Source: a virus
Lineage: Duplodnaviria; Heunggongvirae; Uroviricota; Caudoviricetes
Strand: one strand, 5' to 3'
Length of the DNA stretch: 29,037 nucleotides
Virus record (IMG/VR): IMGVR_UViG_3300045988_046105
Coordinates: 1 to 29,037 of that record
In this document: piece after piece, positions 284 to 26,914 of the stretch
How positions within the stretch are numbered: position 1 is the stretch's first letter
Layout: each line of letters begins with the position of its first letter
The notes under the pieces: generated by a model
Database searches by the model: none
Seen by the model: only the letters and a program-made list of their open reading frames with translations
What the model was told of the DNA's origin: nothing
Translations under genes and position numbers: made by a program

Positions 284-409
284 ATGATGAACAAGTGCAA
301 CGCTCTGCTTTATGCCATGGTGATTGGTTTCGGCCTGGCTGCTGGTATCCGGGTTTATATTGCCTGGGAGTCATTAATCAATCTGGCGTGGAGTGCGATT
401 CGTGGCTAA
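284..409 (+). CDS. small hydrophobic protein, 41 aa (MMNKCNALLYAMVIGFGLAAGIRVYIAWESLINLAWSAIRG)
   Basis: ATG 284 lies 2 nt after the upstream stop (coupled), AGGGG SD-like element upstream, one predicted TM helix, E. coli-like codons. Below the 60-aa ORF-track cutoff; found by manual translation. Confidence 0.3.
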   Translation: MMNKCNALLYAMVIGFGLAAGIRVYIAWESLINLAWSAIRG

Positions 410-740
410 ATCCCCCGCAGAACGCAAAGCCGCGCAGCGCGCTCGGCAGTCCGCCGCCGGTGAGCGCAAAATTGAACTGGTGCTGGATAAGCAGGAGCAG
501 GAAATGCTGGCGCGGAACTGCGCCGCCCGGCGCCCTGGTCGCGATCCCTATGAAATGGTCGAGTACATCGCGCTGCTGATCCGCCAGGATGATGCACGTG
601 TGCGCGGGCGTATAAAATCGATCAGCAGAAAACTTTGCGGTAAGTGCGGCGAGAGAGTTCCCGTTAATTCATGCCCGTGTAATGGTGACTCGCAATGCTG
701 GGTGACTAAAGGCTGGCATGAAACGAAATTAATAGTGTGA
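402..740 (+). CDS. hypothetical phage protein with C-terminal Cys cluster (possible metal-binding)
   Basis: ORF 393..740; GTG at 402 has GGAG 8 nt upstream. Basic N-terminus, C-terminal CGKCG...CPC...C motif. Stop TGA 738-740 lies inside the GTGACATGTCAC palindrome. Confidence 0.5.
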   Translation: MAKSPAERKAAQRARQSAAGERKIELVLDKQEQEMLARNCAARRPGRDPYEMVEYIALLIRQDDARVRGRIKSISRKLCGKCGERVPVNSCPCNGDSQCWVTKGWHETKLIV

Positions 741-3778: not shown

Positions 3779-3855
3779 TGGCGTGGCATGCAGGATTCGA
3801 ACCTGCGACCAACCGCTTAGAAGGCGGTTGCTCTGTCCAACTGAGCTAATGCCAC
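3779..3855 (-). tRNA. tRNA-Arg (anticodon UCU), 77 nt, CCA encoded
   Basis: Hand-folded reverse complement GTGGCATTAGCTCAGTTGGACAGAGCAACCGCCTTCTAAGCGGTTGGTCGCAGGTTCGAATCCTGCATGCCACGCCA: 7-bp acceptor, 4-bp D stem, 5-bp anticodon stem, loop CUUCUAA, 5-bp T stem with TTCGAAT loop. Confidence 0.9.
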
Positions 3856-4176: not shown

Positions 4177-4193
4177 CTTACCTGAAGGGTAAT
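4177..4193. promoter_or_regulatory. operator-like palindrome CTTACC-TGAAG-GGTAAT (site S6) upstream of the portal operon
   Basis: Read directly; sits in the ~420-bp non-coding region 3856-4282 about 90 bp upstream of the first structural-operon ATG. Confidence 0.4.
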
Positions 4194-4282
4194 AATTCGT
4201 GCATTAAATGTCAACTATCTACGATAAATAAATCATATGTGGTTAAATTGGTAATAATTTAATTGCGTACGGAGTCATTGAT

Positions 4283-21154: not shown

Positions 21155-21694
21155 TTACCAAAACTTGTACCACGGGGATTTATCCTTCAATGGACAATCC
21201 TTCCATCGTGTGGCCAACCATTCATATTCTTTAAAATATGTGTTTATGTTTTCTTTTTCTCTAATGGCTTGTATAAGAGGTAGCGCAATCTGATAGTTAT
21301 TTACAACGGAGCTGTAAAATACTTCCTTAATCATGGTCTCATCATAAGTTTTCCGCTTCACGCTCACAGCCATGCGTTCGTAGAAACCTAGACAGTAAAT
21401 TATTTCTCTCTTCTCTGTCTTTTCTTCATCCGTAAGATCAGCCTGCCCATTGCTTGGATACATATAAGAGCGGAATGATTTGTTCGATTCGTGAATGCGG
21501 CGCATAGTAGATAGGCCTTTCTTATAATCTACATCAAACCTGCTTTCACCAAGGAATACTGAAGTGTGTACTTTTCTCGCTGTATTTACATTATAAATAA
21601 TAGTAGCGATAGCTATGAACAAGCCAAGCGAAACCGCGACTGCACTTACGATTTGAGCCACAGCCATGGCAAATTGCATTTCTTCACTTAACAC
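21155..21694 (-). CDS. membrane-anchored protein with ~150-aa predicted cytoplasmic domain (candidate exclusion/abortive-infection factor)
   Basis: GTG 21694 with GGAGA SD 6 nt upstream (alternative ATG 21679). One long N-terminal TM helix followed by basic residues. AT-rich. No family recognised. Confidence 0.55.
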   Translation of the reverse strand: MLSEEMQFAMAVAQIVSAVAVSLGLFIAIATIIYNVNTARKVHTSVFLGESRFDVDYKKGLSTMRRIHESNKSFRSYMYPSNGQADLTDEEKTEKREIIYCLGFYERMAVSVKRKTYDETMIKEVFYSSVVNNYQIALPLIQAIREKENINTYFKEYEWLATRWKDCPLKDKSPWYKFW

Positions 21695-21822: not shown

Positions 21823-21839
21823 ATCACCCGTGAGGTAAT
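21823..21839. promoter_or_regulatory. operator-like palindrome ATCACC-CGTGA-GGTAAT (site S7) overlapping predicted -10/+1 of the 21155..21694 promoter
   Basis: Read directly; minus-strand promoter TGTACA-N18-TACTAT predicted by eye. Confidence 0.4.
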
Positions 21840-21903: not shown

Positions 21904-22596
21904 TCAGAAGAACCCTGCTTTGTCGTTGATGTACTCCGCGTGCGTCTGGATATCACGCAGGCATTTGCTCACACCAACGATGTAGCAGAACATGGTGGTC
22001 AGCTCCGCCGCCGCGCCCGATACATCGTGCCCGTCTTCCTGTAACTGGTTCAGCAGATTCATCAGCAGTGAGTTTTCCGTCAGGCCGAGAACACCAGACG
22101 GCGAGTGAATCAGGCTGCGGTAGCCGGGCTTCAGTGGGGCGCTGTAGGTTTTGTTCTCTATCTTCATTGCCTGCATCACTGCTGATGCTGTGGCGTTGGC
22201 TACCTGGTCGGCAACCATCTTTATGCGTTCTTCCTGCGGGAGCGAGTTTTTAATGTAACTTCCGGTGCGGCGGATCTGAGGAAGAACCTCACCTGTAACC
22301 CATTCAAGAAATCTGAATGCTCTCGTTCCCTCAGTCATTGCCTCTTTGCAACGCAGAATAAGGATGTAGAGACCTGATTCTGAAACGATGGATAGTTCTT
22401 GTATTCCACCAGGGGTCTGTATTGAATACAGCCCCTTTTTGTTCCAGCCTTTTTTATCAAGTTTTCTCGCTTGTGTAACATCAATATTCAAAGCATTGCA
22501 CACATCTTTGGTGACAAACCAAGGTTCTCCGTCAATCATGAACATACGGATCTGGCAGGATGACTCAAAGGAAAAGATGGAAGGTTTGGTATTCAT
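21904..22596 (-). CDS. Bro-N domain protein with distinct ~80-aa C-terminal domain (antirepressor-like)
   Basis: ATG 22596 with AAGGTGA SD (track ORF extends to 22641 via non-ATG start). N-terminus FESSCQIRMFMIDGEPWFVTKDV...GLYILILRCKEAMTEGTRAFRFLEWVTGEVLPQIRRTG matches the Bro-N pattern (recollection); C-terminal domain is paralogous to 23743..24000. Confidence 0.75.
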   Translation of the reverse strand: MNTKPSIFSFESSCQIRMFMIDGEPWFVTKDVCNALNIDVTQARKLDKKGWNKKGLYSIQTPGGIQELSIVSESGLYILILRCKEAMTEGTRAFRFLEWVTGEVLPQIRRTGSYIKNSLPQEERIKMVADQVANATASAVMQAMKIENKTYSAPLKPGYRSLIHSPSGVLGLTENSLLMNLLNQLQEDGHDVSGAAAELTTMFCYIVGVSKCLRDIQTHAEYINDKAGFF

Positions 22597-22745
22597 GGCG
22601 ATCACCTTTGTAGTTAGGTTAATCACCACCGCTGAGACCAATCAGATGGTGGTGAACTGTGCAGAGTTGGTCTTACCGGCTACAAAGGAACCCGGCGCAC
22701 CTTTCGGTGCCCCCACACAGCCCACCATAGAATAGGTGCGCTTTA

Positions 22746-22843
22746 CACATAAAAAAACCGCTTATGCGGCATATGTGCCTCTGTAGTAATCCGGGAGACC
22801 AATCCCGGCACTGGATTTTGCCAGTGCCCGATTACTATGGCAC
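22746..22843 (-). ncRNA. structured 5' leader / candidate small RNA upstream of Bro-N gene, ending in hairpin plus U7
   Basis: Nested helices: GTGCC(22775-79)/GGCAC(22839-43) and GTAATC/GATTAC enclose two stem-loops (CCGGGA-N6-TCCCGG; GGCACTGG-N6-CCAGTGCC); then CCGC-N4-GCGG plus U7 (22751-22769). The 69-aa ORF over this region has no ATG and spans promoter elements. Confidence 0.35.
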
Positions 22844-22862
22844 AAGAGGAGTGCGATGTAAA

Positions 22863-22879
22863 TTTACCGCAAAGGTAAT
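22863..22879. promoter_or_regulatory. operator-like palindrome TTTACC-GCAAA-GGTAAT (site S1) overlapping -10/+1 of predicted Bro-N promoter
   Basis: Read directly; minus-strand promoter TTGATT-N18/19-TATCAT predicted by eye. Confidence 0.45.
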
Positions 22880-22955
22880 GATAAGCGCGGATAAATATTA
22901 AAATCAACCGTATTTGGTTGATTGCGTTTAACGCTTGATCACCTGAAAGCAAGAT

Positions 22956-22972
22956 ATTACCTTTAAGGTAAT
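22956..22972. promoter_or_regulatory. operator-like palindrome ATTACC-TTTAA-GGTAAT (site S2) just upstream of RBS of 22992..23720, plus half-site ATCACC-TGAAA at 22938-22948
   Basis: Read directly; perfect 6-5-6 dyad. Confidence 0.45.
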
Positions 22973-22991
22973 GTTATTGTGAGGAAAAGCA

Positions 22992-23720
22992 ATGGAAGTT
23001 TTCTGGATAGTTGTTGGTGTGGTTGCGGTGATTATTTACGTTATCAACCAGAACAAGACTAAGATCTCTGATCGTACGGTCGTTAATCATAACAAAACGA
23101 TAAAGACCGAAGATGGGGAGATAACGATTAATCGTACACAGGTGATAGAACACACCTCTACTCAGTTTCAAAAAACTGGAGGTAATGCGCCTAATATTTC
23201 CGCACCTCCTGCTTATGATAGTGCGGTAATCCAGACATATTATAAACAGCAGGAGTTAGCAAAAGAGAGGCAACTGATTCAGCCAAAGCCGTTTACAGCT
23301 GAGCTTCCACCTGGAGTGTCAATGCGTCCGGCATATCATGGAAGATTCCCTGGTGATGACATATCGTCTCAGTCATCTAAAAAAGCACCTCAGGCAGTAT
23401 CAGAGCCAGCAAGAATACCTTCTGTATCGCCGCCAAAAGAAGAATCAGCTAACAGAGTTTCAAGTGGTAGCAAGCAGTGCTTGCGATGCAGAATAAACCT
23501 ACCATATGAAAAATTCAGGAAATCGTCAAAAAATCCAGATGGATTGACTAAGTGGTGTGCAAGGTGTCTCGATGGCCCAAAGAATACACGCCATATGAAG
23601 TGGTGCCCAATTTGTAATGTCCGCAGAAAACGAACAAGCTTTTACCCTAATAATCAAAATGCGGATGGCTTAATGGCATGGTGCAAAACGTGCTGGGACG
23701 AGCACAAAGCGAAACGATAG
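22992..23720 (+). CDS. membrane-anchored protein with Pro-rich linker and tandem C-terminal zinc-ribbon-like repeats
   Basis: SD GAGGA 6 nt upstream; N-terminal TM helix; two repeats of C-x2-C-x17/18-(P/A)DGL-x3-WC-x2-C (CLRC...PDGLTKWCARC and CPIC...ADGLMAWCKTC). Confidence 0.6.
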   Translation: MEVFWIVVGVVAVIIYVINQNKTKISDRTVVNHNKTIKTEDGEITINRTQVIEHTSTQFQKTGGNAPNISAPPAYDSAVIQTYYKQQELAKERQLIQPKPFTAELPPGVSMRPAYHGRFPGDDISSQSSKKAPQAVSEPARIPSVSPPKEESANRVSSGSKQCLRCRINLPYEKFRKSSKNPDGLTKWCARCLDGPKNTRHMKWCPICNVRRKRTSFYPNNQNADGLMAWCKTCWDEHKAKR

Positions 23721-23744
23721 GCCGCTCTTGCGGCCTTTAAATTT
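23720..23744 (+). terminator. terminator hairpin between convergent genes
   Basis: GGCCGC-TCTT-GCGGCC followed by TTTAAATTT. Confidence 0.5.
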
Positions 23745-24000
23745 ACCGGGTTTGTTTTCGTAATTGTTCGGCACAATAGTCGAGATGTGTTTGCAGATCC
23801 CGCATAGACATCTGTGAGCTGGTGACGTAGTTAATCAGTGCAGTCAGTTCGGCAAGTGGGCCATCGACATTAAATCCATCCTTATCGAGATCCCGGAGTA
23901 ATTTCATCAAGTGCGATCCCTCCACCAGTGACCTGACGCCTCCCGGCGTGTGAATCCTTTCGGTAAATCCGTCTTCCAGTGGATAGTGATACCGCTGCAT
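23743..24000 (-). CDS. small protein (85 aa) paralogous to the C-terminal domain of the Bro-N protein; predicted SOS-inducible antirepressor-like factor
   Basis: ATG 24000 with GGAGA SD 8 nt upstream (track ORF starts further upstream at a non-ATG). Roughly 45 percent identity by eye to the Bro-N C-terminal region. LexA-box-like palindrome 22 bp upstream. Confidence 0.6.
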   Translation of the reverse strand: MQRYHYPLEDGFTERIHTPGGVRSLVEGSHLMKLLRDLDKDGFNVDGPLAELTALINYVTSSQMSMRDLQTHLDYCAEQLRKQTR

Positions 24001-24021: not shown

Positions 24022-24037
24022 CTGTATATTTATACAG
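24022..24037. promoter_or_regulatory. LexA (SOS) box CTGTATATTTATACAG overlapping predicted -10 of the small-gene promoter
   Basis: Matches CTGT-N8-ACAG with AT-rich spacer (consensus TACTGTATATATATACAGTA); sits on a TATAAAT -10-like element of the minus-strand promoter. Confidence 0.65.
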
Positions 24038-24075: not shown

Positions 24076-24092
24076 ATTACCTGAAAGGTAAT
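24076..24092. promoter_or_regulatory. operator-like palindrome ATTACC-TGAAA-GGTAAT (site S3); half-site TTTCAGGTAAT at 24132-24142
   Basis: Read directly; perfect 6-5-6 dyad between the small LexA-box gene and the tailspike gene. Confidence 0.45.
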
Positions 24093-24195
24093 ATCTATTC
24101 GTATTTACAGCCTTTTTATCCATATGTGGTTTTTCAGGTAATAGAATAACCAGATATGCGGCGCAACGGGTGCTGCGACTATCTGGAGATTTAAC

Positions 24196-26701: not shown

Positions 26702-26914
26702 CTGCTACCGCGCCATTTGATGGTGCGGAATTCAACTAATCCTCTATATTTTGAATCATTTCTGTACTGCAATCTCTTCAGAGTTATGTAAAAGGCAAGC
26801 CTTATTATCGACATGAAAGGAAGGGGATTGACAATACATGGGTAACAAAAAACCATAAATGGTTTATCATGCGTAATGCCTTTACTATTCAGGAGGTAGT
26901 TATGCATATAAACG

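Follow-up and report, generated by a model that had tools for sequence, protein, structure and literature searches.

A perfect inverted repeat is found in an epsilon15/phiV10-like (Uetakevirus) prophage between the minus-strand unit of a Bro-N antirepressor and a plus-strand gene encoding a zinc-ribbon-like protein. The lysis-lysogeny switch of such prophages is known through structures of the SPC32H proteins Rep and Ant. To our knowledge, their promoter architecture has barely been described. An initial reading of the letters without database searches (the sequence-only reading) proposed that the repeat supplies a TTGATT -35-like hexamer on each strand and could be a second regulator site coordinating both units. 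Here, we analyze the repeat within the window, i.e. the whole stretch of 29,037 nucleotides of the viral record IMGVR_UViG_3300045988_046105, and among related loci. The repeat is probably a regulatory site that has so far gone unrecognised, in a phage switch of an otherwise known kind. With moderate confidence, we consider it an extended version of a 14-bp dyad box in the upstream control region of the isrK/C4/Bro-N antirepressor operon, where the box would be a putative second regulator site.

Prophage context of the repeat

The closest phage records to the window are TL-2011b, phiV10 and Tyrion. The window carries terminase, portal and structural genes, a tailspike gene with an epsilon15-type N-terminus, and a lysis cassette. 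The repeat is located in a 395-bp gap between the Bro-N ORF (ATG at 22596) and the divergent Cys-rich ORF. The relevant features are:

402-740: protein gene of the phrog_536, epsilon15 gp49 / phiV10 gp55 family, just before the terminase genes
21904-22596, minus strand: Bro-N / Ant-type antirepressor ORF (Pfam Bro-N 1.8e-13; PHROG 130 'anti-repressor Ant' 3.5e-51)
22645-22732, minus strand: C4 antisense RNA (Rfam RF01695, 78.6 bits against a gathering score of 45)
22751-22827, minus strand: isrK-type RNA with terminator (Rfam RF01394, 74.7 bits against a gathering score of 50)
22902-22923, no strand: inverted repeat AATCAACC-GTATTT-GGTTGATT, from direct reading
22902-22909: left arm AATCAACC
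22910-22915: spacer GTATTT
22916-22923: right arm GGTTGATT
22992-23720, plus strand: divergent ORF whose product has a hydrophobic segment at the N-terminus and Cys-rich, zinc-ribbon-like repeats at the C-terminus (phrog_6762)
23743-24000, minus strand: small Ant gene, matching the SPC32H antirepressor (PDB 5D50 chain E, 3.5e-46)
24022-24037: consensus LexA box CTGTATATTTATACAG, before the small Ant gene

The isrK and C4 RNAs lie directly upstream of the Bro-N antirepressor ORF on the same strand, and the c4-a1b1 Rfam model stayed under its gathering score at 39.9 bits. In the protein encoded at 402-740, the N-terminus is RHH-like and the C-terminus is rich in Cys. The cassette of the zinc-ribbon ORF is missing from phiV10-like relatives.

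The repeat does not belong to a known RNA family, as Rfam searches of 22880-22990 at two thresholds returned only a chance-level lysM-TM7 match (E 0.84). A LexA box was likewise rejected, given no likeness to CTGT-N8-ACAG and the true LexA box at 24022-24037. Consensus sequences of host factors (IHF, Fis, CRP, FNR, DnaA and others) gave no convincing match to the repeat.

Symmetry and folding of the repeat

Positions 22900-22926 read aaAATCAACCgtatttGGTTGATTgcg, which bears out the perfect 8-bp repeat with a 6-nt spacer exactly as first described, including its place between the Bro-N unit and the zinc-ribbon gene. The two arms are fully complementary and the symmetry extends no further. Perfect 8-bp arms with spacers of 3-10 nt occur 12 times in the window (3.6 +/- 2.0 expected in Markov-1 simulations), and the bare 8-bp inverted repeat is statistically not unusual, within chance expectation. 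The window contains no second good copy of the full 22-mer pattern. The 8-mer arm is not enriched in the window, with no other copies beyond chance.

Related loci were collected by scanning viral contigs with the operator to the left of the repeat (described below) as anchor, which yielded about 120 loci. Their right flanks fall into five classes: window-like (zinc-ribbon ORF), DS566-2-like (truncated ant), N1-like (YafO cassette), and two phiV10-like classes in which the small Ant 3' end adjoins the site. The perfect 8/8 symmetry is present in 27 of the ~120 loci, or in 27 of the 41 that share the right-hand gene of the window. The outer four pairs are broken in most relatives, and no part of the intergenic region varies more than positions 22920-22925. 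The full 8+6+8 symmetry is most likely incidental, a local accidental extension of a 14-bp box, and this box rather than the 8+6+8 repeat is probably the functional unit.

The symmetry could alternatively act in RNA. A minus-strand hairpin might form a weak intrinsic terminator or insulator that stops small Ant transcripts, antisense to the zinc-ribbon ORF, short of the antirepressor operon. The predicted hairpin has a free energy of -9.1 kcal/mol in minus-strand RNA (z = -3.8) with the tail UUUUAAUAUUU, and -13.6 in the plus strand. A terminator scan lists the 8-bp stem followed by TTTTAATATTTA. Arms of at least 6 bp are kept in the two main classes despite changes on both sides. Among 32 distinct sequences, two pairs have changed on both sides between the window-like and phiV10-like classes and are still complementary, and covariation reaches 0.276 compared to 0.18 in shuffles. 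However, this covariation amounts to essentially one event between two clades, which is a known caveat of the covariation tool. Only 3 of the 8 pairs are G-C, the U-tract is interrupted, and 14 of the 41 close relatives break outer pairs. The phiV10-like relatives, where Ant reads straight into the site, are without a U-tract, and the gene immediately upstream in the minus direction in the window, the zinc-ribbon ORF, lies on the plus strand. A conserved hairpin with a U-tract and a same-strand gene ending upstream is thus not found in the relatives or the window, and a terminator or insulator role is improbable.

Predicted promoters and repressor operators around the repeat

Promoter scans and operator patterns place the repeat among the following predicted elements:

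22834-22862, minus strand: downstream promoter TTTACA-17-CATAGT, predicted start 22827 (promoter scans)
22863-22879, no strand: 17-bp repressor-type operator TTTACCGCAAAGGTAAT (pattern count and epsilon15 annotation)
22878-22883, minus strand: predicted -10 TATCAT of the upstream leftward promoter (P-up), overlapping the operator edge, start at ~22871 (promoter scans)
22902-22907, minus strand: predicted -35 TTGATT of P-up, formed by the left arm of the repeat (promoter scans)
22928-22958, plus strand: weak candidate rightward promoter TTAACG-19-GATATT, found by one scan and missed by a stricter scan, speculative
22956-22972, no strand: second repressor-type operator ATTACCTTTAAGGTAAT, at a distance of 93 bp from the left one and 20 bp before the zinc-ribbon ORF

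The P-up promoter TTGATT-18-TATCAT was called by two scans, and both leftward promoters are consensus-level predictions with 9/12 matches. The strongest evidence for P-up being real comes from the relatives, since a TTGnnn hexamer, followed at 17-18 bp by a TAnnnT-like one, is present in all five classes despite unrelated spacers. The hexamer pairs found are TTGATT/TATCAT, TTGAAA/TATTAT, TTGCAA/TATATT and TTGAAA/AATCAT. P-up may be a minor promoter, because the 5' end of the isrK model coincides with the predicted start of the downstream promoter at 22827.

The TTGATT hexamer is indeed found on both strands, as the sequence-only reading had stated, but only the minus-strand copy is accompanied by a usable -10. 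Two scans found no -10 at 15-19 bp from the plus-strand TTGATT (22918-22923), and this hexamer varies among close relatives. In none of the sequence classes is there a consistent rightward -10 past the box at this site. A -35 shared by two divergent sigma-70 promoters was therefore rejected, with TATCAT at 18 bp on the minus strand and nothing on the plus strand. A -35 role of the plus-strand half of the repeat is not supported. The -10 of the weak TTAACG-19-GATATT candidate adjoins the second operator.

Repressor-type operators are abundant in the window, with 8 matches to ATTACC-N5-GGTAAT at up to 1 mismatch compared to 0.46 expected. In TL-2011b, phiV10 and epsilon15, the 17-mers cluster around the repressor gene and are also located before the terminase, portal, tailspike and lysis units. 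The same 17-mers carry the annotation 'repressor' protein_bind in the epsilon15 RefSeq record. Based on this annotation and the clustering, we treat the 17-mers as predicted operators of the Rep-type prophage repressor. The left operator covers the -10 and +1 of the predicted P-up. The repeat itself is not matched by the operator pattern at up to 2 mismatches; its half-sites are AACC with a 6-bp spacer, compared to TTACC with a 5-bp spacer. The repeat as an annotated-type Rep operator was rejected on half-site and spacer.

A conserved 14-bp core box

The part of the repeat retained among relatives is its center:

22906-22919, no strand: core box AACCGTATTTGGTT (minus-strand reading AACCAAATACGGTT), AACC-N6-GGTT, kept in all five classes

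The alignment of the core box is gapless with a constant gap of 26 bp to the 17-bp operator in all sequence classes. Bases AACC.TAT.TGGTT are kept across classes, including T-A-T and T of the spacer, with a few variants in the left half (AATC, ATTC) and differing bases around the box. The dyad is 4/4 within the core in nearly all relatives and 8/8 in the window. The genus consensus of the core box is close to AACCATATATGGTT. As judged from these alignments, conservation of the inner 14 bp exceeds chance. One related Klebsiella prophage has no box at this position.

The box stays with the side of the antirepressor operon under every right-hand gene, be it the zinc-ribbon ORF, the YafO cassette, the truncated ant or the small Ant 3' end. 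The idea that the repeat coordinates both divergent units is hence not borne out. Because the box remains on this side and no usable plus-strand -10 exists, we assign the box to the leftward promoter, where its center would lie ~41.5 bp upstream of the predicted start.

The swapping of right-hand genes raises the possibility that the site has no function and is a recombination scar at the cassette joint beside the antirepressor operon, with accidental symmetry. Among 5,426 complete E. coli genomes, 465 match 22840-23140 and only 129 of these cover most of the region. In the remaining E. coli matches, as well as in phage records, homology ends at 22886 or 22924. Positions 22920-22925 are hypervariable, and the cassette at 22920-23752 has GGTT at both sides. 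Nevertheless, the core is conserved in all classes at a constant distance from the operator and recurs in the genome and genus, which makes a mere scar very improbable.

Coding sequence could also hold the box constant. For phiV10-like relatives, coding sequence makes up the right half of the box. The box takes in the end of the small Ant gene, i.e. its last three codons with the stop codon, in both phiV10-like and Tyrion-like relatives. Small Ant genes adjoining the antirepressor operon end in AGA, ACA or AAA before the TAA stop, which fits the box; all three of these sense codons keep T at box positions 8 and 10. Where the small Ant is placed elsewhere, the last codon is CGG (window) or ACT (epsilon15) and the 3' ends form no box. 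The coding constraint on Ant does not appear to fully explain the conservation of the box in these genomes, because the Ant codons fit the box only where the gene adjoins this promoter.

Recurrence of the box at other promoter regions

The box is not restricted to the antirepressor operon. Three further positions in the window carry copies or close variants:

4231-4244, plus strand: box copy AATCATATGTGGTT, before the portal operon, 52.5 bp center to center from the operator at 4177-4193
24118-24131, plus strand: box copy ATCCATATGTGGTT, before the tailspike gene, 40.5 bp from the operator at 24076-24092
26851-26864, plus strand: box-like AACCATAAATGGTT, before the lysis cassette, one mismatch to the degenerate pattern

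The degenerate pattern AWYCNTATNTGGTT (AWYCnTATnTGGTT) has 3 matches in the window compared to 0.01 expected, a statistic inflated by the post hoc refinement of the pattern. Homologous boxes are found at the portal, tailspike and lysis regions of TL-2011b, phiV10, epsilon15, Tyrion and a Klebsiella Uetakevirus. The complete Uetakevirus genomes examined that carry homologous sites are phiV10, epsilon15, TL-2011b and BUCT711, in addition to the Tyrion fragment. Box copies span relatives from E. coli, Salmonella, Enterobacter and Klebsiella, although the occurrences are not independent given that the pattern was tuned on seen sites and the compared genomes are related. A Klebsiella '63-kb phage' with a gp55 homologue was rejected as a separate phage type, being the same kind of prophage with host flanks. 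The tailspike regions of epsilon15 and the E. coli phages have little in common beyond the operator, the box and a TAATAGAAT block. The epsilon15 record holds no annotated feature at any of its box positions, and no description of the 17-bp operator or the box was found in the literature accessible to this search.

The box is also located just 3' of the cro-like gene and its terminator. In phiV10, epsilon15 and TL-2011b, this post-cro region consists of the box, GGTTGATC (GGTTGAT(C)), 16-17 bp, CAAAAT and an ATTACC-like half-site, an arrangement shared with the leftward promoter at the repeat. The post-cro box AACCAAATATGGTT and the minus-strand core AACCAAATACGGTT differ very little. At the portal, tailspike and lysis regions, a -10-like hexamer (TAATAA, TAATAG, TATAAT or TATGAT) follows ~7-8 nt past the box and the -35 is poor. 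There, the box would cover ~-33 to -20 of the predicted rightward promoter. Relative to predicted core promoters, the box is thus centered at ~-41.5 at the antirepressor operon and in the post-cro region, at ~-26.5 at the portal, tail and lysis regions, and within the spacer of a P_L-like promoter. Judging from these predicted positions, no one simple mechanism fits all box locations.

The recurrence bears on whether a protein other than RNA polymerase needs to be invoked. The conserved bases could be the -35 and upstream contacts, with the coding constraint of the small Ant in some relatives, leaving the dyad incidental and RNA polymerase as the sole binder. Consistent with this, the left arm coincides with a conserved -35, the outer arms are not conserved, 8-bp repeats of such a kind are expected by chance, and the right half is coding in phiV10-like relatives. 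Yet the distal half AACCA (minus strand; 22915-22919) lies outside the -35 at ~-44 to -48 and is invariant in six diverged sequences. The same 14-mer is found at other promoters at other positions relative to the -10, and the Ant codon choice matches the box only next to this promoter. We consider a promoter element alone unlikely. The suggestion of a second regulator site in the sequence-only reading thus persists in changed form, with the 14-bp core recurring by repressor operators at other promoter regions rather than the 8+6+8 repeat as the unit.

The distance between operator and box centers is module-specific and identical in all compared genomes carrying the respective module. The distances are 19.5 bp in the post-cro and P_L-like regions, 40.5 bp at the tailspike, 41.5 bp at the antirepressor operon, 43.5 bp at the lysis region and 52.5 bp at the portal. 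At the repeat, the second operator is 51.5 bp from the box center on the other side, so that the flanking operators lie ~4 and ~5 helical turns away. All operator-box distances are within ~1.5 bp of whole helical turns, a post hoc observation among related genomes. A helical-register spacing of box and operators is suggestive.

Candidate binding proteins and proposed mechanism

Binding of the box by Rep or another phage regulator is inferred from the pattern of conservation and recurrence. In the lysogen, tetrameric Rep on the operators would shut P-up, and the box would be a second protein site working with operator-bound Rep. Upon SOS induction, the LexA-controlled small Ant would remove Rep. 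With Rep removed, transcription from P-up could proceed across isrK and C4 to the Bro-N antirepressor gene. The binder might be Rep itself at a low-affinity, differently spaced site. Compared to the operator, the box has AACC instead of TACC half-sites and a spacer one base longer, compatible with low-affinity binding by Rep or with a related protein as the binder. Alternatively, the box might be bound by another phage regulator, such as the Cro-like HTH protein or the RHH/Cys-rich protein encoded at 402-740.

The SPC32H Rep binds DNA as a tetramer with DNA-binding-domain pairs from different dimers (PMC9638917), and its tetramerization domain resembles those of DNA-looping regulators (PMC9986798), as stated by these two papers, which cite the SPC32H work. 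On that basis, one tetramer of the SPC32H type could occupy an operator together with a second site. Every box-carrying genome examined conserves Rep, Cro-like and gp49/gp55-like proteins, with identities between epsilon15 and phiV10 of 42% for Rep, 76% for the Cro-like protein and 78% for gp49/gp55. The comparison cannot choose the binder, because all three proteins are conserved and all could keep their specificity.

The tetramer also opens the possibility of an architectural role. One Rep tetramer could bridge the 93 bp between the two operators, and the repeat, lying close to the middle of the loop, would act as an IHF, HU or Fis site or as an intrinsically flexible TA-rich hinge. The geometry of the window (41.5 and 51.5 bp from the repeat to the operators) and the tetrameric Rep (PMC9638917) with its looping-type domain (PMC9986798) agree with such a loop. 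Furthermore, AATCAA, the core of the IHF consensus, is present in each arm, the box center is TA-rich, and the epsilon15 record predicts IHF sites adjoining Rep operators. However, the TTR part of the IHF consensus WATCAANNNNTTR is mismatched on both strands, and AATCAA is missing from the phiV10-like and N1-like classes, which keep the box. An IHF site at the repeat was hence rejected. Only the window-like class has the second operator at 93 bp, and the box is off center in 62-bp operator pairs (at 19.5 and 42.5 bp). A bending site in a Rep-mediated loop has a low probability given this distribution.

A wider interpretation is that the box (~AACCATATATGGTT) represents a second genus-wide cis-regulatory code beside the Rep operator. 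The box would then stand in helical register at every major lytic unit and at the antirepressor operon, and would be read by the second DNA-binding head of a Rep tetramer or by an uncharacterised phage regulator (Cro-like or of the RHH/Cys-rich gp49/gp55 family). Its effect would depend on position (~-41.5 versus ~-26.5). We regard such a code as possible but doubtful.

Comparison with known regulatory systems

The operon downstream of the box resembles the immI region of P1/P7 (c4 antisense RNA, icd, ant) and isrK-orf45-anrP of Gifsy-1. These share the order of an RNA element (a1b1/isrK), a C4-type RNA and an antirepressor gene. The window has the same components, i.e. a C4-type RNA, an isrK element with a terminator and a downstream antirepressor. 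The P1 immI operon is repressed by the main repressor C1 and also needs C4 RNA (PMC8198154). In Gifsy-1, the isrK promoter drives the whole operon via a leaky terminator (PMC4825925). The two tandem promoters predicted in the window, one overlapped by a repressor operator, may be compared to the P1 immI region, for which a promoter P2c4 is mentioned (PMC4825925). Unlike P1 and Gifsy-1, the phage in the window is a podovirus of the epsilon15 group with another repressor and operator. No description of a counterpart of the upstream box in P1 or Gifsy-1 was found.

A further resemblance is to the Rep-Ant-LexA switch of SPC32H/epsilon15. The window shares the 17-bp palindrome of the epsilon15 annotation, a small Ant similar to 5D50_E and a LexA box before its gene. 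A Rep tetramer with two DNA-binding heads, as described for SPC32H (PMC9638917, PMC9986798), would fit the paired sites in the window. The repeat differs from the SPC32H/epsilon15 operator in having AACC instead of TTACC and a CC-GG spacing of 6 instead of 5.

The position of the box relative to the predicted start has parallels outside this phage group. The dyad is centered ~41.5 bp upstream of the predicted start and overlaps the -35 by 2 bp. Regulator sites centered near -41.5 are known from class II CRP/FNR sites and from lambda CI at OR2 for PRM. Compared to CRP, FNR and lambda operators, the box is unrelated in sequence, and its start is a prediction. Either activation or repression could result. 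Boxes replacing or overlapping the -35 are known from T4 MotA and from the Lpa-dependent late promoters of P1. The portal, tailspike and lysis boxes (~-33 to -20, poor -35) may resemble this type. P1 late promoters need the phage factor Lpa (PMC8198154). The 22902-22923 site departs from the MotA and Lpa type, with no usable plus-strand -10 past the box.

Implications for the prophage switch

If the box amounts only to a -35 with chance symmetry, the finding is ordinary. The prophage type is common, as the matches to the intergenic region in 465 of the 5,426 complete E. coli genomes show, and the box is a short, 14-bp testable target. Provided that the box is genuinely a binding site, it would account for the silencing of late promoters by Rep operators located 40-80 bp upstream. 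It would also reveal the wiring of a second antirepressor operon, one under RNA control, into the switch. Should the genus-wide code hold true, the box would place replication, morphogenesis, lysis and the back-up antirepressor under a common timing set by one protein.

Box sites and paired operators

Sites like the box (the conserved 14-bp core AACC-N6-GGTT of the inverted repeat, 22906-22919) recur beside Rep-type operators, the 17-bp ATTACC-N5-GGTAAT palindromes annotated as repressor sites in the epsilon15 record. Operator pairs at exactly 62 bp recur in phiV10 (L126, 31952-32030), TL-2011b, epsilon15, BUCT711 and UTME-9 (L133, 7760-7838), with a box-like site at distances of 19.5 and 42.5 bp from the two operators. 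The phiV10 region also contains a leftward TTGACA-17-AATTAT promoter, and the box-like sequence lies within its spacer. At the portal and tailspike sites (window 4245-4257 and 24132-24147), GGTAATA follows exactly 5 nt after the box. The heptamer corresponds to half of a Rep operator and shares bases with the -10-like hexamer, and the arrangement is kept in epsilon15, Tyrion and a Klebsiella phage.

Further Rep-type operators occur elsewhere in the window:
1012-1028 and 1030-1046, tandem operator pair, 18 bp apart
21823-21839, operator ATCACCCGTGAGGTAAT, immediately past the end of the Bro-N ORF and ahead of the DUF4760 gene (21155-21694, -)

A terminator-like hairpin (about 975-1000) precedes the tandem pair, and the second operator abuts the small terminase start codon (ATG 1045). 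The operator at 21823-21839 suggests that the DUF4760 cassette has a repressor-controlled promoter of its own.

Exchangeable cassettes

The stretch 22920-23752, comprising the zinc-ribbon ORF and a hairpin (23720-23735), behaves as an inserted cassette. Both of its junctions carry GGTT. The phiV10-like relatives lack it, and in them the box runs straight into the 3' end of the small antirepressor (Ant) gene. Other relatives have a YafO toxin or a truncated ant cassette at this position, and each of these cassettes brings a promoter-like sequence and a Rep-type operator of its own.

Putative late regulator

Two features were annotated around the terminase genes, which directly follow the first:
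402-740 (+), homologue of epsilon15 gp49, phiV10 gp55 and N15 gp46 (phrog_536, 'transcriptional regulator')
3779-3855 (-), tRNA-Arg gene, anticodon tct, between the terminase and portal operons

The 402-740 protein, whose N-terminus is RHH-like and whose C-terminus is Cys-rich, matched nothing in Pfam or PDB and is a candidate late regulator. The Klebsiella relative also has an annotated tRNA-Arg gene at the equivalent place.

Antirepressor control

An 11-nt pair (22784-22794 / 22827-22837, 91% complementary) would bracket the first two hairpins of isrK. With its 5' arm upstream of the 5' end of isrK, the pairing could form only in RNA started at the predicted upstream promoter. Positions 22788-22840 are also matched by the Rfam c4-a1b1 model; the score is 39.9 bits, short of the model's gathering score (46.7).

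A second locus concerns the small Ant gene:
24022-24037, consensus LexA box CTGTATATTTATACAG, upstream of the small Ant gene
23743-24000 (-), small Ant gene, 85 aa, SPC32H antirepressor match (PDB 5D50_E, E 3.5e-46)

Given a LexA box ahead of an SPC32H-like antirepressor gene, the prophage probably uses a LexA-controlled Ant/Rep induction switch in addition to the isrK/C4/Bro-N antirepressor operon.
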